From a virus, in the IMG/VR virus record IMGVR_UViG_3300044712_001937, positions 203,681 to 267,680 of that record: a DNA stretch of 64,000 nt. One strand, given 5' to 3'. Below, one piece after another: positions 2,709 to 41,930 of this stretch (position 1 is the first letter of the stretch; every line of letters begins with the position of its first letter). The position numbers and the translations under genes were made by a program. The notes under the pieces were generated by a model. The model saw only the letters and a list, made by a program, of their open reading frames with translations. It did not search any database and was not told the origin of the DNA.

Positions 2709-3931
2709 CAATAATACTTATAACAATGGGAATTTTATCAATTCAAGCAAAGTGTTCAGATATGTGTCATATATCATTCTCAGATAAAAATACTGGAATT
2801 GATATAGAGCATCAAGGTTATGTTCCAAAAGGTATAGGTATTGGTGGTGGTGATATGATTAGACTGCAAATTGATACTGTAACTGGTAAAGTTTTATCAG
2901 CAGGTTTAATGACTGATGCTGATATAATTGAAGCAATTGAAAACGAAAAATAAAAATTATGAAAACAATATTAATTTACATTTTCAGTAATTTTGGAATA
3001 ACATTAGCATTGTTTTTATTAATAATTCGTTTATTTTCAGAATTTTTTAAACTAAAAAATAACTAATAACATATTATATGATACTTAAGCTAAATATTAA
3101 AGCCACAAAAATTCAAGGTCAAAGTAAGTCTGAACTTATGGATAGACTTCACATGTACGGTTATACTGTAAGTAGTAAGTATGGAAGTTATTATGGTAGT
3201 ATGAACGACAGAGATGAATACATTCTTGTTGCAAACTTCCAGAAGGTAAATAAGAAGACCAAACAAGTAAAAAAGAATATTAAAGGTAAAATAAAAACTG
3301 TATCAACAATTATCCGTAGAGCGCATTGGATTGCGTATTACTATCGCATCCCTAAAGCTTGGCTTGAAGCAAGTGGTTCTAAAGTAGAACAACGTTCAAG
3401 AAATTTCGTAATTAAAAATAAAAAGTAATGAAAAAAAATGAAAATTTAATTCTTCAGATAGTATTAATATTATCAGTTGTTGGTGGAATTATAATTGGTT
3501 GTAGTAAAAAACCTGAACCAATACCTAAAGATGGTGATAAAATTGAAAATTATGGGATATATAGCGATTTAGTTAAAGAAACATCAGGCAGAGGCTATAA
3601 AATTATAGTTATTGATAGCTGCGAATATATTTATGCTTGGTTTGGAGGTGGTTATGGAGGTGGTTCATTAACTCATAAAGGAAATTGTAAATTCTGTAAA
3701 GAAAGGTTGAAATTATGGAAAAATTAGATAAATTTGCAGATAATGATAATTGGAGTAATTGGATTGGTTTAAGAATCATCAAACATTCCAAGAAACCATT
3801 TAAAAATGGCAAGCAAGTCAATATTGCAGTTTCAATGAAAACTAATCCAAATTCGAATAAAATGGGTTTTGAAGTTGAAGATGGTTCTATTGTCGATTGC
3901 CATCAATGTAAACTTTTTAATTAAAACTTGT

Positions 3932-4720: not shown

Positions 4721-4764
4721 ACGTTAACTTCCGTAGATTTGGAGAGGTCTATTGATTTTAATTA

Positions 4765-4802
4765 AACCCATGTAACATTGCATGGGTTTTTTCGTATATA
4801 GA
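4765..4802 (+). terminator. Terminator-promoter cassette copy (cccatgtaacattgcatggg, T-run, TCGTATATAGATG)
   Basis: Near-identical to the 1388 element and followed by the ORF starting at 4827. Confidence 0.6.
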
Positions 4803-5282
4803 TGCATAATCAATAAATTTTAAACTATGAAAAATATATCTAAAGAAGAGATTTGGGATGCAAATAAATATATTGCTATGTTTATGGATTATGAAATATT
4901 TGGCAATACAGTTATTTGTGGTTCAGGTCAAAGACTACATATATCTGAATTCAATTACCATACTGATTATAGAGAATTAATGCCTGTTGTTGATAAAATA
5001 AATCGTAGGGATTGGGTTACAATATTGGCTAATGAATGTAAAATTCATTCTTTAATGGTTAATGAATTTGAAACCATTCATGTAATTGAAGAAGGTTGTG
5101 AAGAAGTTAAAGAACCAATATGGAAAGCCGTTTCCCAATATTGTAAATGGTTTATTATTGAGAAAAAAACAATGGAATAAGTTGTGAAATTTAAAATTAT
5201 TCATATTTTTGTATTTACTATTTGTTAAGAATATGTAAACAGTTTAACCAGAACTGGCATATTCACCAATGAAGATTGGACG

Positions 5283-5322
5283 AAACCCGTGTAACATTAC
5301 ATGGGTTTTTTCGTATATAGAT
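5283..5322 (+). terminator. Terminator-promoter cassette copy (cccgtgtaacattacatggg, T-run, TCGTATATAGATG)
   Basis: Near-identical to the 1388 and 4765 elements. The ORF at 5347 follows. Confidence 0.6.
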
Positions 5323-5346
5323 GTATAACCAATAAAAATTAAAATA

Positions 5347-6522
5347 ATGAGTGAAAATATTAAAGAACAAGGAGTACTTCATTTTTCATTAGGTGAGGAA
5401 TTTGGAATCAGATTAATGGAGATTGCACAGGAACATCTTATATATGGTTATAATCCAGTTAAAGCAGTTGCTACCATTACTGATGGTCTTATTGGTTGTC
5501 CTTATGATTTTGCGTTAAAAATATTAAAAGGCGATATCGTTTTATTTGTTGAAGGTGATGGATTAATAGCTACTGAACGTACAAGTGAAAACGATAAAAT
5601 ATTTCCGAAACTGGATATCCAAAACTGGATAACACGTAGACATAATGATATTGTTGAACATGGTGAAGTTTTAAAATCTGAATTAAAAACATTTCAATCC
5701 AAAATTCATAGAGATAATTACAAATTTGAAATGAATTTTGATTATGATTCAATATTTAAATTCATTGCCGGAAACGATAATATAATTCTCGATGAATTAA
5801 GAGATAACAGCGATATAAAACAAATTGAATTACTTATCTCTGTTACCAAAAAATACATTGACCATTCCTTGCAAATTAAATCCGCAATGGAATGGATTGT
5901 TAATACTTGGGGCGATGAAGATGAAGAATATTCTAATATTATTGATGAGTGTTCGGATTCTTTAATGAATGTAATGAATCTTTTAAAAGATACATTATCT
6001 TTAGATTTTGATTTTGGTCTTATCGAAGATGACGAATTAGCTTCTTTTGTTGAAAACACAATTGAAATTGATAATATTATATCCAAAGGGATTGAACCAG
6101 TTGATATTATGGATAATTACTCTGCGGGTTGGTTAAGTCCCGAAGGTGTATTTTATGGATTAAATGGTGATATAGCTAATATGTTGCATCAACAAATTGC
6201 AGATGCTTTAGTGGAAATAAATATAATTCCTGAAAATTATAAAGAAAATGCTGTTAATCCAGATTCTTGGTTAGCTAAAAATGGTTGGGTTAAAATTCAT
6301 GGAAATAATATTCAGTTTGAAGGTTGTTTAAATTACAGACTACAAAGTAAAAATATTAATTTGAGCAATAAACAAATTAATATTGTGAAATGTTATATTA
6401 ATTATTGTCATTCAGGAATTATGCGATTGGGTTGGAAATTGATTCCAGTAAGTGCAGCAAGATTTGAAATGATGGCAGAAGAGGATATTATTGCTTTGAA
6501 TAAAGAATATTTTGAATATTAA
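5347..6522 (+). CDS. Hypothetical protein (391 aa, acidic)
   Basis: Long ORF preceded by the cassette and followed by a decayed cassette at 6522-6560. I recognise no motif. Confidence 0.5.
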   Translation: MSENIKEQGVLHFSLGEEFGIRLMEIAQEHLIYGYNPVKAVATITDGLIGCPYDFALKILKGDIVLFVEGDGLIATERTSENDKIFPKLDIQNWITRRHNDIVEHGEVLKSELKTFQSKIHRDNYKFEMNFDYDSIFKFIAGNDNIILDELRDNSDIKQIELLISVTKKYIDHSLQIKSAMEWIVNTWGDEDEEYSNIIDECSDSLMNVMNLLKDTLSLDFDFGLIEDDELASFVENTIEIDNIISKGIEPVDIMDNYSAGWLSPEGVFYGLNGDIANMLHQQIADALVEINIIPENYKENAVNPDSWLAKNGWVKIHGNNIQFEGCLNYRLQSKNINLSNKQINIVKCYINYCHSGIMRLGWKLIPVSAARFEMMAEEDIIALNKEYFEY

Positions 6523-7603
6523 AATCATGTAACATAATACATTTTATTTCGTATATAATTAAAAATAAATAATATGAGTAAATACGATATTAATACACAT
6601 GGCGATTTTAAGAAATACTATGATAGTAAATATAAACGAAATTATTGGGTGCTTGGATATTTCGGTGGTGGTGCTGTCAATATAGTAGATGCATATGAAC
6701 TTGCAAAACAATTCGCAGATGCAATTAAAGTTCCATTGGAGACTGTACAAATCGATGAAGTGTTAAAGTCTCGCAGATATAAACATTTCAAGTTTTTATA
6801 TTCAACTGTTGATGAACAAAAACCTGAAAAGGATAGTAACATAATAGAAAATGTATATCAATGGTTAACTGATTAAAATTAATAAATTTATGGAAGTAAC
6901 TGAATATAAACTCAAGCTTAAAATTCTTAAAGAAGAATATGATACGAAATTAAATGAATTGCATACTGAATTTGCAATGTCTAATAATAACGTACATAAT
7001 GGTGATGTATTCACAGACCATATTGGAAGTGTTAAAGTTGACCGTATTGAAGTAACTCTTGCAAGTTCAGATAATATTCCATCGTGCGTGTATTATGGTT
7101 TTGAGGTGAAGAAAGATGGAACACCTAAGAAAAGACCTTATTATCGCTTGGCGTACCAAATTAATGAAGTAAAAAAATAATAAAATGCCTAAGAAAATTA
7201 ATCATATTACTAATACTGATGAATGTTGTGCACACTGTGGAATACCATTTAAATATTACTGGTATGATAAGGAAGAACGAAATGGAATTAGTGAAATTAA
7301 ATGGAATGATAAATATCATAAACATTGTAGCGAGATTGTAACAGGTAGTGAGTGTAAAAGTTTACAAAAGTTAAACGAAGAAAGAAAAATAATCAAATAA
7401 AATAACAAAATGCCTGATATTTTAAAATCATTTAAGGTACTCTGTAAGATTGATAAAAACGATGGGAATGGTATTAAAGACGATTATCCTGTATTCACTA
7501 AAGCTAATGATGATGTAGATGCTGAAAAAAATGTGAAATATTATTGGGTAATGGAAAAACCGGAAGTTTCTTATTATGGTGTAACTAAAATAATTGAAAT
7601 GTA

Positions 7604-8079: not shown

Positions 8080-8913
8080 ATGAATGATAAAAAATCCATA
8101 TGCGTATTATGCGGGAGAGAATGGCTACCTGTAATTAAAAATTTATGCGAATGTGGAGGTTTTTGTACATGGGGGTTTGAACCAAATAAACCTGAAAGTT
8201 TTACTGTTGATGCCGAAGGAAATTGGCATTTAAAACCAATACCAATGATTGAAAAAAAGTCTATAAAACTATCCGATATTAAAGTTAATCTTCCATTCAA
8301 TATACAAAAGAACATGTATATTGGACATTTGATGGATTGGAAAGATGGTATCCATAAATATGGATATAAGGTGGATTTTGATGTTTTTTTACCAACAAAA
8401 GGAATTAATCTTCAACGTGATTTTTGCTGGACAATTGAGCAAAAACAAGAACTTATATTATCGGTAATTAAAGGTGTAGATATTCAAACATTCACAGTTA
8501 TAATTTATATTGAAGATAGTATTAAAAGAGATACTACAATTAAATTCATAGATGGAAAGCAAAGATTCTCAACATTACTTGATTTCATTCAAGATAAATT
8601 TCCGGTAAAATTATTAGGTGAAAGTTATTTATATAGTGAACTTCCTAAAGATATTAAGGATGTTATTGACCATTTCGATATACATTTCAATCAAACATAC
8701 GAATACCAAGATGATTTAATATCTGACGATATGAAAATAGCTTGGTTTGAACAAATTAACTTTGCTGGCACTCCCCAAGATATTGAACATTTAAATCGTT
8801 TAAAATCCGATAAGAAGATTCATAAATCTATTTGTAGTGCTGATAAAATTGGTGCTTGGTGTTTAGGATGTGAAGAAAGAAATAATTGTAAACTTTATCG
8901 CAATAATTTATGA
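8080..8913 (+). CDS. DUF262 (ParB/Srx-like) domain protein with an N-terminal zinc ribbon; paralog of the 147..965 gene
   Basis: 'LQRDFCWTIEQKQELILSV...FIDGKQRFSTLLDF' matches the DUF262 signature. The N-terminus has 'CVLCGREW...CECGGFC'. Confidence 0.55.
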   Translation: MNDKKSICVLCGREWLPVIKNLCECGGFCTWGFEPNKPESFTVDAEGNWHLKPIPMIEKKSIKLSDIKVNLPFNIQKNMYIGHLMDWKDGIHKYGYKVDFDVFLPTKGINLQRDFCWTIEQKQELILSVIKGVDIQTFTVIIYIEDSIKRDTTIKFIDGKQRFSTLLDFIQDKFPVKLLGESYLYSELPKDIKDVIDHFDIHFNQTYEYQDDLISDDMKIAWFEQINFAGTPQDIEHLNRLKSDKKIHKSICSADKIGAWCLGCEERNNCKLYRNNL

Positions 8914-13736: not shown

Positions 13737-15185
13737 ATGAGTGATATTATCTTAACAAGAAAAATAAAACTTGGTGTTTATGTTCCAGAAATTATTGTTG
13801 ATGAAAAAGAACGTAAAACATATAAAGATTTTGTTTGGAGTTTATTACGGAATATTAATCGACAGAATTTTGAATTTCATAATCTATTAGTAAAAAAACT
13901 AATTGAAATTGATGCTATAATTTCCTCTCGATTAAGTGTAGATGATAAATTTATCAAATTAAAAAATAATTATTTTAAAGATAAAAAAGTATCAAAACCT
14001 TATTTTGATTATATCAAACAAACACAAAAAGAATATATTGAATCGTTAAGTTATAAAAATATTAATTCTTATATTTATAATTATTTAGTTCAATATATTA
14101 AATCATTATCTGATGAACAACAATTAATTAATTCATATTCTTATTGCGCAATATCTAAAAATGTTTGTGATAAATATAATGATGATTTATTTGATGTAAA
14201 TAGAGGTATAAAAAACGTTGCCTTTTATAAAAATACTCAACCAATTCCTATTAATATAAAAGCACCTTCATATATTGATGAAAAAGGAGTTAAATCAAAA
14301 TCATTGGGAAAGTTTTGGTTTAATAAACATGAAGATAAATATGTCTTTAAATTTAAATCTTCAAAAAAACATGATATTGAATTATTACTTTTATTTGGTA
14401 AAGATAGAAGTAATAATAGAATTATGATTGATAGAATCTATAATAATGATTCTAATTATAAAATTTGTGATTCTGATATTCAAATTATAGATAATGAAAT
14501 ATTTTTATTATTAACAATAAAACAATTTAATATTGAAAATAAAATTCTCGATAAAAATAAGGTATTAGGAGTTGATTTAGGTATTAAATGTGCTGCATAT
14601 ATTGCTACAAATAATTCATTAGAAAGACAACAAATAGGTTCTAAAGAATTTGTACTATTAAAAACTAAATTGCAAATTGAAAAAGATAAAAGATTACTTC
14701 AACGAAATTCAATATTTTCAAAATCAGGGCATGGAAGAACAAGAAAACTTCAAAAATTAAATGATTTTAAAGAATATGAAAAGAATTTTAGAAATACTTT
14801 TAACCATCAAATATCTTCTGAAATTATAAGTCATGCAATTAAATGGAATTGTGGTCAAATTAATGTAGAAGATTTATCAGCAATACCTTTAGAAGAAAAA
14901 AATAAAAGAATTCTTCGTAATTGGGCATATTTTGATTTATTAAATAAAATTGAATATAAAGCTAAAAAAAATGGAATAAACTTTTTAAAAGTTAATCCAG
15001 CATATACATCCCAAATATGTAATGTTTGTGGGAAAAAAGGTGAACGAATAAAACAAGATACTTTTATTTGTATTAATCAGGATTGTAAATTTCACGATAA
15101 ACCAATTAATGCAGATTATAATGCAGCAATTAATATTGCAAAAAATATTAACATAAAAAAAGAAGAAATTGTATCAATATCCTAA
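13737..15185 (+). CDS. TnpB/Cas12f-like RNA-guided nuclease candidate (split RuvC plus zinc finger), directly upstream of a CRISPR array
   Basis: RuvC-I 'KVLGVDLGIK' (D280). 'SGHGRTRKLQK'. RuvC-II 'INVEDLS' (E378). TnpB hallmark 'NPAYTSQICNVCG'. Zinc finger CxxC...CxxxC ('CNVCG...CINQDC'). RuvC-III 'NADYNAAINIA' (D460). The N-terminal region is about 270 aa, longer than canonical TnpB and in the Cas12f size range. There is no adjacent tnpA. Confidence 0.8.
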   Translation: MSDIILTRKIKLGVYVPEIIVDEKERKTYKDFVWSLLRNINRQNFEFHNLLVKKLIEIDAIISSRLSVDDKFIKLKNNYFKDKKVSKPYFDYIKQTQKEYIESLSYKNINSYIYNYLVQYIKSLSDEQQLINSYSYCAISKNVCDKYNDDLFDVNRGIKNVAFYKNTQPIPINIKAPSYIDEKGVKSKSLGKFWFNKHEDKYVFKFKSSKKHDIELLLLFGKDRSNNRIMIDRIYNNDSNYKICDSDIQIIDNEIFLLLTIKQFNIENKILDKNKVLGVDLGIKCAAYIATNNSLERQQIGSKEFVLLKTKLQIEKDKRLLQRNSIFSKSGHGRTRKLQKLNDFKEYEKNFRNTFNHQISSEIISHAIKWNCGQINVEDLSAIPLEEKNKRILRNWAYFDLLNKIEYKAKKNGINFLKVNPAYTSQICNVCGKKGERIKQDTFICINQDCKFHDKPINADYNAAINIAKNINIKKEEIVSIS

Positions 15186-15406
15186 AATTATATTATATTT
15201 GTATCATCATTTTGAATTTAAGTTCTTTGATATAATTGATATTATTGTTTTTAGTTAAACAATAATTATGGCTGGTTGTACAGCCAAAAGTGAGGTCGAA
15301 ACCTAAAAAATGAATAATTTTGAGCAAAGTTTCATAGAACACTCACTAAATATCTTTCATTATTTTTAAATAAAATATTAATTTACAACAAATTACATAA
15401 AGGTAT
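15186..15406 (+). other. Non-coding region between the nuclease gene and repeat 1: candidate leader, tracrRNA or omega-RNA scaffold
   Basis: Contains the hairpin ggctggttgtacagcc (15270-15285). The 40 nt before repeat 1 hold repeat-like fragments ('atttacaac', 'aaatt..aaaggta'). Confidence 0.3.
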
Positions 15407-15771
15407 GTTGTAAACAACCACAAATTGAAAGGTACTTACAACTATTTGGACATAGAAGTACTGATTATATCAGTTGTAAACAACCACAAATTGAAAGGTA
15501 CTTACAACTCATTACTTACCTGCCTTTCTTTTATCTAAGTTGTAAACAACCACAAATTGAAAGGTACTTACAACGTGCTGGTAGTCCTCAGATTCGTTTA
15601 ATTGTTGTAAACAACCACAAATTGAAAGGTACTTACAACTATTCAATATACAAGAAATGTATTAAAAGAGTTGTAAACAACCACAAATTGAAAGGTACTT
15701 ACAACCTATGGTTAGGATACTGTTATTTTTTTCATGTTGTAAACAACCACAAATTGAAAGGTACTTACAAC
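15407..15771 (+). CRISPR. CRISPR array with 6 identical 36-nt repeats (GTTGTAAACAACCACAAATTGAAAGGTACTTACAAC) and 5 unique spacers (30, 30, 29, 30, 30 nt)
   Basis: Repeats lie at 15407, 15473, 15539, 15604, 15670 and 15736. Each repeat has 7-bp inverted termini GTTGTAA/TTACAAC. The spacers share no similarity with each other. Confidence 0.95.
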
Positions 15772-15806
15772 AGTAGGAGAAGTTCGGGTTCGATTCCCAC
15801 TACTCT
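15772..15806 (+). other. tRNA-like minihelix fragment immediately after the last repeat (GGTTCGATTCC T-loop-like core flanked by agtag/ctact)
   Basis: 'agtaggagaagttcgggttcgattcccactactct' contains a TTCGATT loop and a 5-bp closing stem. It is too short for a tRNA. Confidence 0.25.
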
Positions 15807-15820
15807 ATTAAAATTAATTT

Positions 15821-15916
15821 GGTGCTGTTTGTAATGTTGGCTATACATTTTGTCCATGAAGCGTAAAGTGAAGTATGGCAAGCTCAACGTAGGTTCAATT
15901 CCTACCAGCACCACCA
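15821..15916 (+). tRNA. tRNA-like element (96 nt, encoded CCA) with non-canonical anticodon and variable region
   Basis: Perfect 7-bp acceptor stem ggtgctg/cagcacc, discriminator A plus CCA. Perfect T-arm gtagg-ttcaatt-cctac. D-stem tgta/taca with a GG loop. I could not fold a canonical anticodon arm in the 41 nt between the D-arm and T-arm. Confidence 0.35.
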
Positions 15917-20800: not shown

Positions 20801-21730
20801 TAAATTTACCCAAGGTTTAAAAATGCATCTCGAAAATACTGAATATTCCAGCATGGAAGATTTAATGGATTCTTATGATGCAAATGATGCAGATTGTATT
20901 ATTCAATATGCTATATTTAACGAATTAATATTTGGATAATTATGGAAGTTATTGATGTTAAAACATTAGGAAGTTTAGCTACTTCAACATATTTTAGAAA
21001 TGATAATAAACAAACTATTAAAGTTGAAGTTAGAATTCGTACTCATTGTAGTGTAGTTAATCAATTAACAACATTTTACTATAATATGTATTTGAGAAAA
21101 TATAAAGGTAGAAAATTCCGTTACATTATGACTGGAAATAATCAAGATAAAGATAAATACTCTCAATGGATTGATGAACAAAGTCTCTATATTGCATATC
21201 ATAATCATTGGAATAATATTAATCCACTCAAACAATTTAGTAAAACATATTTAAATGGTAATCCTACTTCTTTTTCAGTTGAACCTGTATTACCAGATAA
21301 ACCAAATGAAATAAAAACCTTACGTGCTGATAATAAATTTAAATAAAATAATTATGAGAACACAAATTTTTGCATACAAAGGAATTGTTGCAGCAATTAC
21401 CGATTTAGAAGATGGTAAATTTCTTAATGACCCATTAGCAGGTGGACAATTAGATTGATATAACCAAAGAAGCAAAGGAGTTAATAAGAAAAGCTCCAAG
21501 AGAAGGTGGTTCATTTGCAGCAATAATGCTTACTAAACATGGTGATGGCTCAGATTCATCAATAGGTTTAATCGGATTTAGAAAACATTTATATGCTGGT
21601 GAAGACCTGTGTATAGGTAGGGATTGTGATGTTTCAGTATTGGAAGATTGCAATGAAACCGAAATCGAACTTCCTGTAGATTTTGTTAAGTTTATCGATG
21701 AAAACTTTTAAATAAAATAGGAAGAAAAAT

Positions 21731-21767
21731 AAAAACCCATGTAAGATTACATGGGTTTTTTTATTTA
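21731..21767. terminator. Bidirectional hairpin terminator (cccatgtaagattacatggg) between convergent genes
   Basis: Same hairpin family as at 1388, 4765 and 5283. It is flanked by an A-run and a T-run, so it can work on both strands. Confidence 0.6.
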
Positions 21768-22661
21768 ATACTTAATTCTTCCATCCACACTCCCATCATT
21801 ACGGATAGATAATTTTTTACCGCATCCTTTACATTCATATCTTATTGAATTACCTCTCTTTCCATCTTTAACAATATGATTACTTCCACAATACTTACAA
21901 ATCATGTTTCTATCTATTACCTTATCAACTGGCTTATAATTTAAACATTTATCTTTTTTTCTTTGTAAACTAATATTAGCATCTTTATATATAAAATCAA
22001 TAAGTTTAAGTATTTCAGATGTTTTAATAAAGACTAATTGATATACTATTTGTTTACTTTTACCTCTTGGTAATTTTTCATTTATATTCCAACAATTAAT
22101 ATCGATTGATTTTAAGTATGAATCTAATTCATAAATAAATGTTTTTGAAACTGAACAAAACTCAATGGTTATTAAATTTTTTCTTTTAGCTCTGATATAA
22201 ATGCTACCATCAGCATCAAAAAATCCTCTAATAAAATGAGAAATTAAATTTTCATTAATATCCGGAATTTTTAACATTTCTTTATTTTCATATGATTTTC
22301 TTGGGTAAACTCCATTATTTAATAAATCATGATAAAGTTCTTTTGAAGATTTAGCTAATGATTTTTGTTTCCCTGAATTTTTATTATGCTTAGAAAAATC
22401 ATATTCTCCAAGATTGAAGAATGGGAAATTTTCATGTAGTGAATATATTAAATTTTCATCATCTTTATGAATTGAAATCCTTGTTAAAAATCTAATTCTA
22501 TTATTTTTCTCAACATAATTACTAATAGTACCATCACCATACATAAATCCTAATAAATATGCTTTTTCTTGAGTATCAATTTTTTCTAATTCTCTATTAT
22601 ATTCCATATATTTAAATTTTCTATAAATACTGTACACATATACAAAAAACCACCAAATCAT
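21765..22661 (-). CDS. LAGLIDADG homing endonuclease with a C-terminal zinc ribbon
   Basis: Two LAGLIDADG-type motifs, 'LLGFMYGDGT' and 'IRGFFDADGS'. C-terminus 'CKYCGS...CKGCGK'. It is a minus-strand island. Confidence 0.7.
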   Translation of the reverse strand: MIWWFFVYVYSIYRKFKYMEYNRELEKIDTQEKAYLLGFMYGDGTISNYVEKNNRIRFLTRISIHKDDENLIYSLHENFPFFNLGEYDFSKHNKNSGKQKSLAKSSKELYHDLLNNGVYPRKSYENKEMLKIPDINENLISHFIRGFFDADGSIYIRAKRKNLITIEFCSVSKTFIYELDSYLKSIDINCWNINEKLPRGKSKQIVYQLVFIKTSEILKLIDFIYKDANISLQRKKDKCLNYKPVDKVIDRNMICKYCGSNHIVKDGKRGNSIRYECKGCGKKLSIRNDGSVDGRIKY

Positions 22662-26873: not shown

Positions 26874-28084
26874 AATTCTGGGACTTTTTTTTGCAACATA
26901 TATTCATAAATTTCGTACTTAAATATGTAAAAATTAGGAAAAATATGAAAAACGCCAATATTTATCGTAAAGAATTAAGTGAAATTAAAGCTAAAGAAAT
27001 TGCTTTAAAAAATAGTATAGGTAAAAGACTTTATACTTTAGCTCTTAATTATCCGGATGCTATTGTAAGTAAAGTTGGTGATACTCCAATTAAAGCTAAA
27101 AGAATTGCATCAGCATTTTATATTGAATCAATTGAATTATCAGCACAGATTGATTGTATTGAACGAATTGAAAAATATATTGAAAGTATTTCTCCAGTAA
27201 AGCAGCTTGAAATTAATTGGGAAAACATAAAATAAGAAAATCATGGAACTAATTAAAAAGAAAATTAAAGACTTAATTAATTTTTCATTTGCTGAATCTC
27301 AACCCGATGAAAATATTAGTTTGGCAAAGACCATTAAAAAGGTATTAATAGAACATATTGTTAATGAACTGAAAATACTTTCCAAAGAAAATAATACTAT
27401 TCTTGGTCGTGTAATTAAGTTTTCAGTTAATGATTCTTATGCATATTATGTTATTGTTAATATAAGAGATGTAAATGTTGATATTGTTTGGCTTGATTAT
27501 GGAAAAGGTTATCAGAATCTTAAATTTACTGAATTTGATACAATTCCTTTTGATTATGCAAATGAGAAAGTACAAAAAGAAGATGAATTTGAAATATCTG
27601 AACCTGAAAAAATTAGTATATGAATATATTTTTAATTAAAAAAATAATTTGGGGAATAATCACACTAATTGTAATGTTAATGTCATGTATTTGTATTATG
27701 TACAGTATTGGTGGTTTCTCTAAAGCCAAGTTTTTGTTTGCATCATTATCAATATCTTCAAACATATTTAATTTATTATTTATGTTACCAGTTATTGTTT
27801 GTTGCTTAATTGCGTTATTTGTCTGTCTTAAAAAATTTTTCAATTATAATGCAAAACAGAAACTGTTTAATTATGTCAACAATAAAATTTTGTAAATCAA
27901 TATTTTTTATCTAATTTTAAATTTTTTAATTTCAAATAAATTATGACAACAAAAATAAGCGAAAACGAAATAAATGAGCAAATTGATTTAGCAAATCAAG
28001 CAATTAATGATGGTGGTAAATTTACCTTTTTGTCTTATGAAGATGGCGTTAAAACTGCATTAGAATGGATAATGGGTAATACTG

Positions 28085-28567
28085 ATGTTAAACCAATGGA
28101 AGATTAATCATATGACTATTACTTATCTTAAAGGTGATGTAACATATCCAATTGGTGATGGTAATAAAATAATACCGCACTGTTGTAATGATTCTTCAAA
28201 ATGGGGGCGTGGTTTCGTCTTGGCTCTCAGCAAACGTTGGAGAGAACCCGAAGAAGTTTATCGTTCAGTAAAACTAGAAAATCTTATTCTTGGAAAAGTT
28301 CAATTCATTTGTGTTGAAAATGATATTATTGTTGCAAACATGGTTGGTCAACATGATATTAAACCTAATGAATTAGGCGAACCTCCTGTTAGATATTGGG
28401 CAATAAGAAAATGTTTACAACAAGTAAACCGCATGGCAAAATTATCTAATTCAACAATACATTGCCCTAAGTTCGGAAGTGGCTTAAGTGCTGGAAAATG
28501 GGAAGAGATTGAAAAAATTATTATAGAAACTATTGAAGTGGATGTATTTGTTTATGATTTAATTTAA
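28085..28567 (+). CDS. Macro domain protein (ADP-ribose binding or hydrolase)
   Basis: 'IIPHCCNDSSKWGRGFVLAL' fits the macro 'VNAAN..L..GGGV..AI' motif. 'IHCPKFGSGLSAGKWEEI' fits 'IAFPAISTGIYGYP.EE'. Confidence 0.5.
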   Translation: MLNQWKINHMTITYLKGDVTYPIGDGNKIIPHCCNDSSKWGRGFVLALSKRWREPEEVYRSVKLENLILGKVQFICVENDIIVANMVGQHDIKPNELGEPPVRYWAIRKCLQQVNRMAKLSNSTIHCPKFGSGLSAGKWEEIEKIIIETIEVDVFVYDLI

Positions 28568-28573
28568 AATAAT

Positions 28574-28942
28574 ATGGAAAACAAATCTATAAAAATTAAT
28601 GTACCCGAAGGGTTTGAAATTGATAAGGATAAATCAACGTTTGATGAAATTATTTTTAAGCCAAAACAGAGTTTTGAAAAAGATATGTCAGACTTTTTGT
28701 TTAATATTATCAATGGTTCAACCATGATAATGACTGAAAAGGATGAAGTCACATATTATAAAGATAATGAATGGATTCTGCAACAGGATTTTAAAAAAGA
28801 TAATTTATGGGTTAGATATTCATTAATTTGGGTAATTTTTGAGAAAAAATATAGTCTTAACAACCAACAAATCAGTGATTTTATTAAGGGTTGGGTAGAA
28901 ACCAACCTAAATTGGAAGGGATTAACACCAGGTTGCTGGTGA
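28574..28942 (+). CDS. Hypothetical protein, paralog A (MENKSIKINVPEGFEIDKDKS...), whose 3' end runs into a 36-nt repeat
   Basis: Paralogous to 29880..30287. Most nucleotide differences between the two are synonymous or conservative. The C-terminal 'VETNLNWKGLTP' is encoded by the repeat. Confidence 0.55.
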   Translation: MENKSIKINVPEGFEIDKDKSTFDEIIFKPKQSFEKDMSDFLFNIINGSTMIMTEKDEVTYYKDNEWILQQDFKKDNLWVRYSLIWVIFEKKYSLNNQQISDFIKGWVETNLNWKGLTPGCW

Positions 28943-28996
28943 AGAAACGATTGAAAACAGGTAGAAACCAACCTAAATTGGAAGGGATTAACACCA
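28895..28996 (+). repeat. Repeat-spacer-repeat unit: two perfect 36-nt copies (GTAGAAACCAACCTAAATTGGAAGGGATTAACACCA) separated by a unique 30-nt spacer; candidate solitary CRISPR mini-array
   Basis: Copies at 28895-28930 and 28961-28996, spacer at 28931-28960. It has the same 36/30 geometry as the main array and shares its core AACC..AAATTG.AA.GG. Confidence 0.5.
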
Positions 28997-29879
28997 GATA
29001 ATATAAAATTTATATAATTTATGTATAATAAACCATTAGTAGTATTAGCAAAGAAATTAGGATTTGAAAGTAAATTTTTTTCAGACCAACCTTGGAAGTT
29101 CTCAGAACGTGAACCGATGAGATATCAATTATGGCTGGAGGAATTAAAACAATGGTTAATCAATAATTATGATTTATATGTTGAAGTTCCAAAAACGATG
29201 AGCACTTTTATTAATAATGAATCATACAAAAAAACTTATAAATTTACATTTAATATAAAAGATATTACTGATGAGCATTTTAAAACAACTTCTTTAAATG
29301 GATTCGATTCATATTTAAAAGCATTAGAAGTTGGCGTTCATAGAACATTAATTTATATAGATGAAATAAAATAATTATTAAAATATTTTGTATCTTTATG
29401 CGATATATTATAAAATAACCTTATTTAATCCTGAAATTATATGGACGTAGCTTTTCTAACTACCGATTTTAAACTACCAGATTATTCAAATGAATTATTA
29501 ACCGCAGCACAAGCAATTGAAAAACTTAAGGATGAAATTGAAACTATAAATCTAAATAAAACAATTACTGATAAATCTCATGAAATAATATTTGAGCGTA
29601 TCATTAAAGTTTTAGATTATGTTGGAAAATTATCACAACCTTCATTTGAAATTGAGTATAAATTGGAAGAATTGTATATAATAAACTATCCACATTCTCC
29701 AGAGCTTGCAAAAAAATTATGGCAAGACCACTATGAAAATATTCATCATCCATTCGATTTATTAAAAAACAGATGTTTTAGATTAATTGAAGAATTGGAT
29801 GCAATATTTCATATAATTCACAAAAGGCATCCAAGAAACTGGAAACCATAAACTATTAATATACCTTAAATTTAATAAC

Positions 29880-30287
29880 ATGGAAAACAAATCTATAAAA
29901 ATTAACGTACCCGAAGGGTTTGAAATTGATAAAGATAAATCAAGTTTCGAAGAAATCGTTTTTAAAATAAAACAAGATATAAATAAAGAAATGTCAGATT
30001 TCTTATTTAAAATCGTCAATGGTTGTATGATGAAAATGACTGATGAAAATAAAATCACTTATTATAAGGATGATGAGTGGATTTTACAACAGGATTTTAA
30101 AAAGAGTTATTTATGGATTAGATATTCATTAATTTGGGAAATTTTCGAGAAAAAATATGCTCTTAACTATCAACAAATCAAGAATTTTATAGTGGGTTGG
30201 GTAGAAACAAACCTAAATTGGAAGGGATTAACACCGCGACCTAAATGGAGTAATGTTCCTCATGAGGTAGAAACAAACCTAAATTAG
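29880..30287 (+). CDS. Hypothetical protein, paralog B of 28574..28942, also ending in the repeat
   Basis: 135-aa ORF. Protein identity to paralog A is high and the differences are codon-level. Confidence 0.55.
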   Translation: MENKSIKINVPEGFEIDKDKSSFEEIVFKIKQDINKEMSDFLFKIVNGCMMKMTDENKITYYKDDEWILQQDFKKSYLWIRYSLIWEIFEKKYALNYQQIKNFIVGWVETNLNWKGLTPRPKWSNVPHEVETNLN

Positions 30288-30302
30288 AAGGAATTAATAC
30301 CT
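30201..30302 (+). repeat. Second repeat-spacer-repeat unit of the same family; copy 1 is near-consensus, copy 2 carries 4 mismatches, and the 30-nt spacer differs from mini-array A
   Basis: Copies at 30201-30236 and 30267-30302. The spacer 'cgacctaaatggagtaatgttcctcatgag' is unrelated to the spacer in A. Confidence 0.5.
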
Positions 30303-30334
30303 AAATATTAAACTGTAATTTACTTCTAACACAG

Positions 30335-30368
30335 AAAAAACCTGTATATTCTACAGGTTTTTTATTTT
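30335..30368. terminator. Bidirectional terminator between the convergent + and - blocks (aaaaaacctgtatattctacaggtttttt)
   Basis: 8-bp stem with an A-run and a T-run on the two sides. Confidence 0.65.
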
Positions 30369-30983
30369 GATAAGTATTTGACCAAGTAAAACTAACACAG
30401 AACCAATAATCCACCACCAAATATTTTCTTGTATAATATTCCATGTTAATTTCAACCAATCTGGATGATAAAAATAAAAATTTATTAATAATATTATTAA
30501 AATAACAGCTCCAAATGCGAAACAAATTATTGATATTAAAATTCTAAAACCAATTAAATCTTTTAAAAAATTTTTCATATTTTAACTTTTAATCATTATC
30601 AACACCATCATCTATTAACCATCCTAAGAACATTCCAAAGAATAATATCCAACTTAACATTGATAAGAAAAACATTAAAATTCCAGCATCAAAATCAATA
30701 CTATTTTGTTTCTTATCTCTTAATAGATATATTCCCCACATAAATGATACAATATATCCAATTATCCATATTTTAATACAAATATTCATATTGCTTTTTT
30801 TAATTAACCAAATTTATGACAAATAAATATGCAAGTCAAGTAAAATTTGAAAAATATGATATATGAAAGAAAATTCATAATTAATAAATTATTACCTATA
30901 ATTGTAATAATATAATTTATTACATATTATCATAATAAACTAAATTTAATACAGCAGAATAAACTAATTTTAATACAAAAAAT

Positions 30984-31015
30984 AAACCCGGATATCTTAA
31001 ATGATATCCGGGTTT
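30984..31015 (-). terminator. Hairpin terminator downstream of the flotillin-like gene (aaacccggatatcttaaatgatatccgggttt)
   Basis: 12-bp stem flanked by A and T runs. Confidence 0.6.
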
Positions 31016-31039
31016 ATAATTTAATTAAGCAAATTTAAA

Positions 31040-32941
31040 TTATGCTTTTTTATCTGATTTAGGTGTTGCAACAGGAGTGATTGAATTATTTACTGGATTA
31101 ATATAATTCAGCATTTGTATCGCAGCTAAACTATCGATTGAACTTCCACCTTGACCACCTGTAATTAATATCTTAGGCATAAGTTCTAATTTACCTGCAG
31201 CAATTGCATCAATCATTTTCAATTTACCGAATGCATCCTGACCAATAGCTTTAGCTTGTTCTTCATATGCTTTAGCAGTTGCATTACCTTTTAATTCAAT
31301 AACATTAGCTTCAGCAGTACCAGTTTTTGTTGTTCTTTCAGCTTCAGCAACAGCTTGAAGAGTAATAGATTGAGCATTACCTTCAGCTTTAAGAACGTTA
31401 GATGCTTTATCACCTTCAGCTTTAAGAATATTAGATTTCTTTTCACCTTCAGCTTCTTTAACTTTCTGTGCAGCAATTTTTTCTGCAATAACTACGCCTT
31501 GGTCTGCTTTAACAAGTTCACCTTGAATATCTGCAATACTCTTTTGTTTTTCCAAATCCTGACGGGTTTGTTGTGTGATAATTTGAGTAGAGTAGGTTTT
31601 ATTGGTTTCTTCGGCAATCTTACGGTCAGTCAAAGTTTTCATTAAGTCAGCAGGTGGAACGATATCACCGATTAATGTATCAACAGCAGTTACGTTATAT
31701 TCTTTTAATACTGAAGATATATGCATTTTTGATTCAGTTTGACGTTCTTTTCTATCAACCAAGAAAGCAATAACATCTGAATTTTGAGCAGAGTTACGGA
31801 AATAGTTACCAATTGTTGGCTCAAGTACTTGAGAAACCAAGTTCTTCATATTACCAAAACGTGCGATAACTTTAGATGCTTCAGTTGAAGGTACATGTAT
31901 AATCTGACTTACATCAAGATTGAAAGCAAAACCGTCTTTTGAACGTACAGTAATAGTAGAAAGATTTTCATCTAACTTATGTGATTCATTACGATTATTT
32001 GCCCAATTTAATACAATGTTTGTAGTTGGAACAACTTCCATTCTTTGAGTTGCAGGATTAATTGCATATTTGCCGGGGTCGAATGGAACATTCCAAACGC
32101 CTTTTTTGCCGTTTGCAACAATATTTCCATGACCAAATTTTTCACCTGTTAAATCTTCACCTTTATCACCAACAAATGAAATAATAACACCAACAGAACC
32201 AATTGGAACTTCAGTTAATGGAACTTCCTTAAAACTTACAAACCAAGGATTAAAATTATATGTACCTGACTGTACGATTTGAGATTGAATACCTCTTTGA
32301 CCTCCATTATTCAAGAAAGATTCTATATCTTGAAAATTATTATGGTTTGGTACTTCTTTACCTGCAATTTCACCTGATGGTAATGGTTCTCCATCTAAGG
32401 TTGTTATAACCCCTACCATATTTTCATTAATACGGGTAATTTCTTTTGCTACAATTTTAAATAAATTAGTGTTAATACGATATGACCCTGCAGGTATATA
32501 TGTTGCTTGTCTACCTTTTTGTCCACCGTTTTGTAAAAATGCTGCAGCATCAGTAAAATCTTGACATTCTACATATCTACCTAAAATTGAACCGACAGTT
32601 ATAGCTTTTCCATCTTCAGCATACACTAAACCAATACATCCAGAAGGTATATTAGTTAATGGTACTAATTTTACATCAAATTTCCAAGGATATAACCAAA
32701 AATGAAAACCCGGTGTTAGAGTCTGTGCCTGATAACCAGCTTCACCGTTTATAGCAAACAAACGTCCTTCAGATAATGCAAGAGCACCACCCCAGAATCT
32801 AAACTTTTTGTTTACAAGACCAACTTTATCTTCCGGAACATTAATAATTCCGAATAGTCGCATAATACCGTTAAAGAAAACGATACTTAAAATTATTAGT
32901 AGAATCCACCAATAATTCGATAATAAACCTAATACAATCAT
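31040..32941 (-). CDS. Flotillin-like SPFH (band 7) family membrane protein
   Basis: N-terminal TM helix. SPFH-like 'PGFHFWLYPW'. The C-terminus has Ala/Glu/Lys-rich repeats 'KAEGDKASNVLKAEGNAQSI...AKAYEEQAKAIG' typical of flotillin/YqiK. Confidence 0.6.
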   Translation of the reverse strand: MIVLGLLSNYWWILLIILSIVFFNGIMRLFGIINVPEDKVGLVNKKFRFWGGALALSEGRLFAINGEAGYQAQTLTPGFHFWLYPWKFDVKLVPLTNIPSGCIGLVYAEDGKAITVGSILGRYVECQDFTDAAAFLQNGGQKGRQATYIPAGSYRINTNLFKIVAKEITRINENMVGVITTLDGEPLPSGEIAGKEVPNHNNFQDIESFLNNGGQRGIQSQIVQSGTYNFNPWFVSFKEVPLTEVPIGSVGVIISFVGDKGEDLTGEKFGHGNIVANGKKGVWNVPFDPGKYAINPATQRMEVVPTTNIVLNWANNRNESHKLDENLSTITVRSKDGFAFNLDVSQIIHVPSTEASKVIARFGNMKNLVSQVLEPTIGNYFRNSAQNSDVIAFLVDRKERQTESKMHISSVLKEYNVTAVDTLIGDIVPPADLMKTLTDRKIAEETNKTYSTQIITQQTRQDLEKQKSIADIQGELVKADQGVVIAEKIAAQKVKEAEGEKKSNILKAEGDKASNVLKAEGNAQSITLQAVAEAERTTKTGTAEANVIELKGNATAKAYEEQAKAIGQDAFGKLKMIDAIAAGKLELMPKILITGGQGGSSIDSLAAIQMLNYINPVNNSITPVATPKSDKKA

Positions 32942-40994: not shown

Positions 40995-41930
40995 TTATTT
41001 AAATTTCCAAATAAATGATTTATATTGCTTTCTTATTCCTCTACAACATTCTGAAATTCCAGTTGCATTATAATTAAGCGTTTTTACAATTTCTTGTCCT
41101 GAATTCCATTCTTTTATTATATTATTATTAATATCATATTGTATTATTTTTTTTTCGTTATTAATTGAATTCCAATTAACATTATTTTTTGTAAAATAAT
41201 TTTTAATTGCAGTAATTGGAATATTATATTTTTTATGCAAGCCATATATAGTATATTTTCCACTTAAAAAATCATTTTTAAGTATAGGATATAAATTCTT
41301 ATAATAATTAATTCCATTTATTTCAATATTTTTATTTTTATAAGGTATTTCCTTCCATTTATGTTTATAATCACTAATAGGGCATTTACCTATATATTTT
41401 AAAAAATTATTAACTTTTTTTCTAGGTATATTAATCAAATATTGCGTATCTGTTTTTCTCAATGGTTTAGCATCAAAATCAGATAATTTTTCACATAAAA
41501 AAATAATTTCATCATACGTAAATGAATTTGTATGTAATTTAATATATCCATATTTTTTTTCAAGCTCACCATCACCAATATACCACATCAATAATAAATT
41601 TTTATTAATTTCAATATCAAGCGGTACTATTTTAATTTTATTTGCATAAAATCTTAAATATTGTTCAGTAAATACTGATAATGATTTAGTTCTAAATGAG
41701 TAATTAATATATGTTTTTTTAGTTCTATTATCAAAAATTTCTTTTTTTACTATTACTCGATTATTTTCATTACAATATTCTAAAAAAAATTGATGTATAT
41801 ATTCAGTGTGTTGTTTTGAAGATGATAAATATTTAAAAGATGCATTTTTTCCATTTTTATGTAATTCTAAATGACCATCACCTAATAAGCAACCTTCTAA
41901 AATTTTTTGTGTATATGTAAAATCATTCAT
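40995..41930 (-). CDS. LAGLIDADG-like homing endonuclease with a C-terminal HTH-like DNA-binding tail
   Basis: Motifs 'CLLGDGHLE' and 'WYIGDGELE'. C-terminus 'EWNSGQEIVKTLNYNATGISECCRGIRKQYKSFIWKF'. Confidence 0.5.
   Translation of the reverse strand: MNDFTYTQKILEGCLLGDGHLELHKNGKNASFKYLSSSKQHTEYIHQFFLEYCNENNRVIVKKEIFDNRTKKTYINYSFRTKSLSVFTEQYLRFYANKIKIVPLDIEINKNLLLMWYIGDGELEKKYGYIKLHTNSFTYDEIIFLCEKLSDFDAKPLRKTDTQYLINIPRKKVNNFLKYIGKCPISDYKHKWKEIPYKNKNIEINGINYYKNLYPILKNDFLSGKYTIYGLHKKYNIPITAIKNYFTKNNVNWNSINNEKKIIQYDINNNIIKEWNSGQEIVKTLNYNATGISECCRGIRKQYKSFIWKFK

Follow-up and report, generated by a model that had tools for sequence, protein, structure and literature searches.

The window examined here is a stretch of 64,000 nucleotides (nt) from a virus (IMG/VR record IMGVR_UViG_3300044712_001937, positions 203,681 to 267,680), and it forms part of a 364,702-bp contig of a large phage in which rIIA, rIIB, endonuclease VII, RNA ligase, and LAGLIDADG endonucleases are present. 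Within it, two paralogous copies (75% identical) of a conserved phage gene of ~120 amino acids (aa) each carry, at the 3′ end of their coding sequence, the first repeat of a short repeat-spacer-repeat unit that resembles a CRISPR array. The gene that carries the repeat is named the array-head gene in this work, and the short arrays are referred to as mini-arrays.

Both copies of the array-head gene lie on the + strand. Copy 1 (28574..28942) encodes 122 aa, and its stop codon is found four codons into the spacer (..TPGCW*), while copy 2 (29880..30287) encodes 135 aa and is translated across the spacer into the second repeat. At both loci the first repeat lies inside the open reading frame (ORF) and encodes the C-terminus (W)VETNLNWKGLTP. 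In copy 1, the repeat corresponds to the last 12 sense codons and the G of the preceding Trp codon.

Mini-array 1 is comprised of repeat 1a (28894-28929, +, 36 nt, embedded in gene copy 1), the spacer AGGTTGCTGGTGAAGAAACGATTGAAAACA (28930-28959, +, 30 nt, 40% G+C vs 26% for the window), and repeat 1b (28960-28995, +), which lies past the stop codon and yet is 100% identical to repeat 1a. The repeat at this locus reads GGTAGAAACCAACCTAAATTGGAAGGGATTAACACC, and its two copies agree at 36/36 positions, or at 38/38 when one flanking base on each side is included. Mini-array 2 contains repeat 2a, GGTAGAAACAAACCTAAATTGGAAGGGATTAACACC (30200-30235, +), which is embedded in gene copy 2 and differs from 1a by one synonymous base, the spacer GCGACCTAAATGGAGTAATGTTCCTCATGA (30236-30265, +, 30 nt, 43% G+C), and the distal repeat 2b (30266-30301, +). 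Repeat 2b is degenerate, with three transitions that include a TGG>TAG change, and the ORF of copy 2 terminates at the TAG created by this G>A substitution. Both loci have a 66-nt period, as seen by direct reading and with a repeat finder, and the two spacers show no kinship to one another or to the remaining window.

These features agree with a preliminary description of the same sequence, which had reported two pairs of 36-nt repeats split by 30 nt, unrelated spacers, a first copy that doubles as the C-terminus of a duplicated gene, and decay of the last copy at the second locus. Its positions were right for both loci, except that the register matching the main CRISPR array of the phage begins one base earlier, at 28894 and 30200.

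With regard to transcription, both mini-arrays lie on the strand of the gene. An intrinsic-terminator-like hairpin followed by a T run (30335-30363, +) is located 34 nt 3′ of mini-array 2. No other site of this kind lies within 27800-30700, and gene and array are not separated by one. It is likely, judging from this arrangement, that the hairpin forms the 3′ end of a gene-plus-array transcript. The repeat RNA itself shows no significant stable hairpin, and neither the mini repeat nor the main repeat of the phage matches a CRISPR-DR family in Rfam. It was also observed that an independently assembled version of this phage region (L085, Logan contig SRR26046407_6062873) starts just past mini-array 1, at window position ~28970, as would be expected if assemblers break at repeats.

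Recurrence and dynamics of the gene-embedded arrays

A search of 5.8 billion proteins recovered 24 homologues of the array-head protein besides the two copies of the window. Nearly all of them terminate in WVETNLNWKGLTP, and six go on for 10 variable residues and then repeat the peptide. The DNA of these homologues, together with loci from profile-guided scans of IMG/VR and Joint Genome Institute (JGI) metagenomes, yielded ~35 distinct loci in which the last 36 nt of the gene are followed by 0 to 5 more repeat-spacer units; scans of IMG/VR with a single protein or with the exact repeat returned nothing, and it was the profile-based scans that succeeded. One repeat is present at 8 loci, two at ~12, three at 7, four at 6, and six at 2. 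At least one spacer is therefore found at ~27 of the ~35 loci and none at the other eight, a result at odds with a coincidental coding repeat, for which homologues lacking a second copy had been anticipated.

The arrays contain 49 different spacers without cross-similarity, 40 of which are 30 nt long, 6 are 29 nt, and 3 are 31 nt; periods in the homologous loci are 65-67 nt, over up to six repeats. Repeats inside one array copy the gene-embedded repeat, including its lineage-specific synonymous variants, and repeats differ between loci. The distal repeat is degenerate (1-10 mismatches) in ~11 of 23 arrays, window locus 2 among them.

The gene family is large. Among 1.84 billion cluster representatives searched with a profile, 792 clusters at 50% identity belong to it, and distant members with other C-terminal peptides, such as VGRDINCEGLTP (L039), VEEALKWKGLTA (L088, 57% G+C), and MVEDYYKLESVKP (a hot-spring contig), keep the 36+30 layout on contigs that span 21-57% G+C. 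Single phages hold 2-5 copies of the gene-array module. Among cultured phages, no close relative of window positions 27500-31500 was found. The only genome-collection match to the repeat family is a 7.5-kb phage-like contig (L040/L024, JALNXG010000108.1) in a Melioribacteraceae metagenome-assembled genome (MAG), which gives a weak hint of an Ignavibacteriota host for some members.

Comparison of related loci reveals how the arrays change. The decisive pair is formed by L089 and L008, whose upstream flanks agree at 98.5% of positions and whose downstream flanks agree at 100%. L089 has the structure gene-R-S3-R and L008 the structure gene-R-S1-R-S2-R-S3-R (R, repeat; S, spacer), so that the distal spacer is common to both and two gene-proximal units are extra in L008. 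This pattern is the classical signature of leader-proximal acquisition; for this single pair, the difference may also have arisen by loss of the proximal units through repeat recombination. In addition, L001 and L009, which are syntenic (83-86% identity over >2 kb), contain 1 and 5 spacers, respectively, with zero in common, and a divergent syntenic relative of the window (L021), in which rIIA and rIIB are followed by two gene copies, has 0 spacers at either copy. Arrays of 3-5 spacers are stable across samples (L009 = L010 = L016).

Regular direct repeats, unique spacers of near-constant length, polar spacer variation, and a degenerate distal repeat, by which CRISPR arrays are recognised, are thus all found at these loci. 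The repeat-spacer-repeat reading proposed in the preliminary description is borne out by the 0-5 spacers that follow the same gene-embedded repeat elsewhere and by the two gene-proximal units that distinguish L008 from L089. The term "solitary", which had been applied to the two units of the window, is misleading, since the family consists of growing arrays, of which these two are at the short end.

The repeats are maintained at the nucleotide level and not at the protein level, as indicated by frame-breaking periods, stops, and frameshifted copies. Nine of the 49 spacers are 29 or 31 nt long and shift the reading frame. Stop codons interrupt the frame in 7 of 23 first spacers, and the repeats downstream of them are nonetheless perfect, for example in the six-repeat array of L008. 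A 1-nt insertion in the second copy of L001 alters the peptide and leaves the nucleotide sequence conserved, and the middle repeat copy of P0185 is translated in a different frame with its nucleotides conserved.

Two further observations concern translation through the arrays. First spacers are free of stops in the frame of the gene in 16 of 23 arrays, vs ~49% expected at 35% G+C, a difference of marginal significance. One contig (L086, 6001-8283) contains a single ORF of 760 aa made up of five tandem units, each with a short gene copy and repeat-spacer-repeat(-spacer-repeat), with eight spacers in total. All units are in frame, at periods of 66 or 60 nt, and the gene copy that comes next is fused to a "terminal" repeat, a conserved variant. 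This single frame may reflect selection for read-through or ascertainment.

The array-head gene and selection on its repeat codons

The array-head gene is a real, folded protein-coding gene under purifying selection. The AlphaFold2 model of its product has a mean predicted local distance difference test (pLDDT) score of 88, and the ratio of nonsynonymous to synonymous divergence (dN/dS) is 0.134/0.60 = 0.22 for the two window paralogs, with a median of 0.33 over 172 pairs in the family. The protein matches no Pfam or PHROG family and has no fold neighbour in the PDB. Its structural relatives are uncharacterised phage proteins only, at least nine of which come from records labelled "uncultured Caudovirales phage".

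Codon use inside the repeat was assessed across 28 loci, with the codon usage of the same genes as background. At Lys115, 18 of 19 loci use AAG (background 15% AAG), at Thr118 all 26 of 26 use ACA (background 22%), and at Gly116 19 of 28 use GGA (background 22%). The fixation of these codons against the genes' own usage indicates selection on the nucleotides themselves. The fixed codons sit in the 3′ half of the repeat (TGGAAGGGATTAACACC), and in type V CRISPR RNAs (crRNAs), the 3′ half of the repeat is the part kept as the handle. A general excess of synonymous conservation across the repeat was also considered and is absent; only specific codons are fixed.

A non-coding AT-rich leader is not present at these arrays. 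Instead, the upstream sequence and the first repeat are the coding sequence of a conserved gene, and this is what makes the arrays unusual.

A candidate effector and the explanations weighed

The only CRISPR effector found in the window is a Cas12f of 482 aa (13737..15185, +), which lies 13.7 kb from mini-array 1, the mini-arrays being 13-15 kb away from it. Its ORF matches Pfam PF07282 Cas12f1-like_TNB (6e-18), the PDB Cas12f entry 9nzr (6e-48), and AsCas12f-type chains (~1e-39), and the RuvC D/E/D motifs can be read in the translation. The gene is followed by a putative trans-activating crRNA (tracrRNA; 15221..15366, +) and by the main CRISPR array (15407..15771, +), in which six 36-nt repeats GTTGTAAACAACCACAAATTGAAAGGTACTTACAAC enclose five 29-30-nt spacers. 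Cas12f proteins related to this one (48-71% identity) are encoded on phage-like contigs with their own 36/30 arrays, and the region kept between cas12f and the array in these relatives (nhmmer E = 3e-29; single copy in the window) is taken as the tracrRNA on the basis of its conservation. The repeat segment TGAAAGGTACTTA finds its complement in the anti-repeat of the 3′ tail, TAAATATCTTTCA (15347-15359), and the repeat's 3′ end in a hairpin loop, GGTTGTAC (15274-15281); anti-repeat and loop both covary with the repeats of the Cas12f relatives. A sliding duplex scan for the tracrRNA was uninformative, and the candidate emerged via the relatives.

Some other observations were made around this locus. 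Positions 13737-15916 form a complete compact type V-F locus, with a tRNA-like sequence directly 3′ of the array; a T-arm-like fragment lies at 15772-15810, and a "tRNA-His(atg)" predicted by ARAGORN at 15821-15916 is barely at the Rfam threshold. In relatives of the Cas12f phage (L046-L049, 9692-9850), a 52-aa ORF directly 5′ of cas12f has the N-terminal motif of the array-head protein (K.I.VP[ED]G[FY]EIDK..STFE.I.FK) without the family core or the repeat.

The kinship between the mini repeat and the main repeat, which had also been noted in the preliminary description, holds up. Each of the four mini copies agrees with the main repeat at 23-25 of its 36 positions, and together they are its top four non-self matches among 128,000 36-mers on both strands of the window. 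The next best 36-mer reaches 22/36, which is the chance maximum, so the similarity is real but only modestly above noise; the common 36+30 geometry lends it independent support. The identity is concentrated in the 3′ half (AAATTG.AAGG.A.T.ACA.C). Pairwise identities among 11 Cas12f-linked repeats are 13-28/36, a range that includes the 24-25/36 between the mini repeat and the Cas12f repeat of the window, and the latter is the closest of the 11 to the mini family. In both kinds of repeat the two ends are complementary to each other, as GTTG..CAAC (main repeat) and as GGTG/GGTA..CACC (mini family). In the mini repeat a Val codon forces a G at position 2, and position 35 holds C, not A; the two would make a compensatory pair, which is suggestive only, since it is not retained in a distant member that ends in ACAGC.

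Taken together, both window loci are read here, with a probability of roughly 60%, as genuine CRISPR-type mini-arrays in which the 3′ end of the gene combines coding sequence, leader, and first repeat, with acquisition of the Cas1-Cas2 type and guide use by a Cas12f-like effector. In this scheme, a Cas1-Cas2-type integrase would insert prespacers where the Trp codon meets the repeat and thereby copy the in-gene repeat; this enzyme is probably that of the host, since none was found in the window. The array would be transcribed as a 3′ extension of the array-head mRNA, and the transcript would be cut into crRNAs with a 5′ handle from the 3′ half of the repeat (...UGGAAGGGAUUAACACC in the mini-arrays) and a 3′ spacer, which is the type V orientation. 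With this orientation the in-gene repeat would give the newest spacer its handle and the last repeat would be dispensable, which fits both the codon constraints and the decay of the distal repeat. Finally, a Cas12f-like effector would use the crRNAs against competing mobile elements. This is the weakest step; the candidate user in the present phage is the Cas12f/tracrRNA pair at 13737-15366.

Several results weigh against this interpretation. The duplex of the tracrRNA with the main repeat is predicted at -9.3 kcal/mol and is equalled in 0.7% of shuffles (0.007), whereas that with the mini repeat is predicted at -6.2 kcal/mol and shuffles do as well at a frequency of 0.18-0.24; the 3′ end of the mini repeat, AACACC, fits the tracrRNA loop at only 4/6 positions. 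An nhmmer search with a seven-sequence alignment detected no second tracrRNA in the window or at any gene-array locus. The 5-10 kb around every other gene-array locus contain no cas gene, and a Pfam search of 30 window ORFs (at least 230 aa) and 20 neighbouring ORFs revealed neither Cas1/Cas2 nor another effector. None of 33 Cas12f loci in IMG/VR shares a contig with a gene-array, which is a weak negative because the search patterns are clade-specific. No protospacer for the 49 spacers or for the spacers of the main array was found in 760 kb of collected loci (BLAST) or in INPHARED, where 30 concatenated spacers were used as the query. Exact 22-mers of both window spacers have no match in IMG/VR, and the comparison of these spacers with phage genomes that had been suggested in the preliminary description returned no match in either collection. 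Within the array-head gene, synonymous identity is the same in the repeat codons (0.62) as elsewhere (0.61), so the nucleotide constraint is limited to a few positions.

A tblastn search with Cas12f against all gene-array loci gave a single match, a TnpB of 371 aa in L039 (139-1254), located 2.2 kb upstream of a distant array-head homologue (3464-3916) with its own repeat-30 nt-repeat unit. No sequence link was detected between the 3′ flank of this TnpB and the repeat.

Among other explanations, the one that survives best, although unlikely, is that the arrays are by-products, in which the gene end mimics a leader-repeat junction and Cas1-Cas2 of the host mis-integrates there, the results being neutral scars or an adaptation sink and not guides. 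A repeat-like site duplicated around a spacer-sized insert is the exact product of non-canonical integration, and work by Nivala et al. in 2018 (Nat Microbiol) is said to have described non-canonical spacer integration that duplicates a repeat-like site. That no phage Cas1/Cas2, adjacent effector, or protospacer was found would be at home in such a scenario, as would the non-specific pairing of the tracrRNA with the mini repeat and the eight spacer-free loci. However, the design persists over 792 clusters and 21-57% G+C, including members with a changed C-terminal peptide, and the repeat codons are fixed against usage, which points to selection on the nucleotide sequence. Moreover, neutral scars would hardly account for arrays of 3-5 spacers inherited stably across samples or for the 2-5 module copies retained per phage.

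It is also possible, but improbable, that the repeat units serve in anti-defence, being either decoys of the RNA anti-CRISPR kind or regulators, similar to crRNAs, which load Cas proteins of the host and so disable or re-programme them. Solitary repeat units of phages reportedly act as RNA anti-CRISPRs in the work on Racr. Most of the loci in question have no adjacent cas gene, and several repeat copies are present per genome, as such a role would allow; a preprint (bioRxiv 10.1101/2024.10.29.618823) documents phage-borne solitary repeats and mini-arrays with anti-defence or regulatory roles. A decoy should imitate an array of the host, but a two-repeat degenerate pattern of the mini family detected no host array in 185,579 GTDB species genomes, its lone match being the phage-like contig of the Melioribacteraceae MAG; the scan covered hosts within this collection and repeats close to the mini family. 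Spacers turn over and accumulate in a polar manner as in immune arrays, which a decoy does not need. As for a regulatory guide, the first 16 nt of the window spacers, with up to three mismatches, show only chance-level complementarity to the window and none near cas12f, the scan having covered the 64-kb window of a contig some 300 kb longer. Of the three roles offered in the preliminary description, guide arrays for a candidate phage or host effector fit best; the decoy has no support, no such host array having been found in these genomes, and neither has the regulatory guide-like role, there being no partial self-target in the window.

A protein-level cassette, in which a 12-residue motif would flank hypervariable 10-residue peptides in a translated precursor (like the multi-core precursors of ribosomally synthesized and post-translationally modified peptides (RiPPs), or a polyprotein), is very improbable: it could draw on the 66-nt period (22 codons), the 16 of 23 stop-free first spacers, the several homologues that translate through one to three units, and the single frame of L086, but it is contradicted by the stops in 7 of 23 first spacers (at window locus 1 already four codons past the repeat), by the frame-shifting lengths of 9 of 49 spacers, which vary by ±1 nt and not by ±3 nt, and by the perfect or near-perfect nucleotide identity of untranslated or frameshifted copies. 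The RiPP or translated-repeat idea is thus largely refuted by the frame-breaking periods and stops. Diversity-generating retroelements, integron cassettes, and target-site duplication were dismissed on geometry (no reverse transcriptase, 30-nt inserts, and identical 36-nt repeats).

Elsewhere in the window, a cassette of 40-71 nt is repeated at 1386-1460, 4760-4834, 5279-5353, 6518-6557, and 21729-21769. It consists of a G+C-rich hairpin with a T run (AAACCCATGTAACATTATATGGGTTTTTT), followed by TTCGTATATAGAT...ATAACCAATAAAA, and looks like a terminator/promoter unit reused between genes. Two LAGLIDADG homing-endonuclease ORFs (21765-22661 and 40995-41930, both on the - strand) and two ORFs with a GmrSD_N domain (147-965 and 8080-8913, both +) are also present. 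A 33-nt tandem coding repeat in three copies (31344-31455) lies within an ORF of 633 aa of the SPFH/Band-7 type (31040-32941, -).

Implications and comparison with known systems

CRISPR arrays are usually regarded as non-coding, and repeats overlapping an ORF are routinely thrown out by array finders as false positives, so that arrays of this kind would be systematically missed. As the family is large (792 clusters) and phage-specific, it could represent a widespread and overlooked layer of conflict among phages or between phages and hosts. If the gene does supply leader and first repeat with its codons bent to that end, it would be a clear case of dual coding, in which one sequence specifies protein and CRISPR repeat alike. 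A natural system would then also be at hand for studying the minimal leader-repeat sequence needed for adaptation, array building by phages that lack Cas1-Cas2, and crRNA excision from an mRNA, and the family could supply compact guide-expression designs for Cas12f-type editors.

A bolder version, which is rather unlikely, holds that the array-head gene and its in-gene repeat form a self-contained, previously unrecognised phage CRISPR module in which the small protein is itself CRISPR-associated. If this were true, the protein could mark the integration site for borrowed Cas1-Cas2, bind or shield the nascent crRNA, or tie its own translation to the making of guides. The arrays would in that case work for an effector class to which they have not yet been linked, and hundreds of phage lineages would carry portable, gene-anchored "spacer capture" cassettes that need no canonical cas locus.

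Several known systems share part of this anatomy. CRISPR mini-arrays without adjacent cas genes are known from huge phages and from archaeal viruses, where they take part in conflict between viruses. They are similar to the present arrays in their 1-5 spacers, in repeat and spacer sizes, in spacer differences among close relatives, and in the absence of adaptation genes from the phage, with Cas12f encoded elsewhere in the genome in the present case. The difference is that leader and first repeat are intergenic there, whereas here a conserved gene family (792 clusters) provides them, with its last ~36 nt and the codons upstream.

Type V-F (Cas12f) systems have in common with the mini-arrays a 36-nt repeat, 30-nt spacers, palindromic ends, and a handle orientation that agrees with decay of the last repeat. 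On the other hand, the mini repeat ends in ACACC and the main repeat in ACAAC, pairing of the mini repeat with the anti-repeat is not above chance, and the other gene-array loci have no Cas12f nearby.

The omega-RNAs of TnpB and IscB also place a guide scaffold inside the 3′ end of a coding gene with the guide directly downstream, and this likeness is one of anatomy only. In those systems the overlapped gene is a nuclease and a single guide is defined by the transposon end; the array-head gene encodes no nuclease and is followed by a repeat-spacer array with spacer turnover.

In neo-CRISPR integration, a repeat-like 36-nt site within a gene is likewise duplicated around a spacer-sized insert. 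Such events are sporadic, whereas the present arrays occur in one gene family over wide divergence, with multi-spacer polar growth and codon-level selection. CreA/CreR, the viral Cracr, and RNA anti-CRISPRs resemble the mini-arrays as repeat-spacer-repeat units of phages outside a canonical array. They mimic a specific host repeat, and their pseudo-spacer partly matches a promoter; neither feature was found here, and spacers accumulate.

Literature text searches with the peptide and repeat sequences and with related concepts returned no description of a gene-embedded first repeat, the sequences bringing up a single, unrelated plant paper. The arrays and their dynamics are well supported. What is new is that a conserved, non-nuclease gene appears to supply both the leader and the first repeat, an arrangement that sets these arrays apart from all of the closest known systems.

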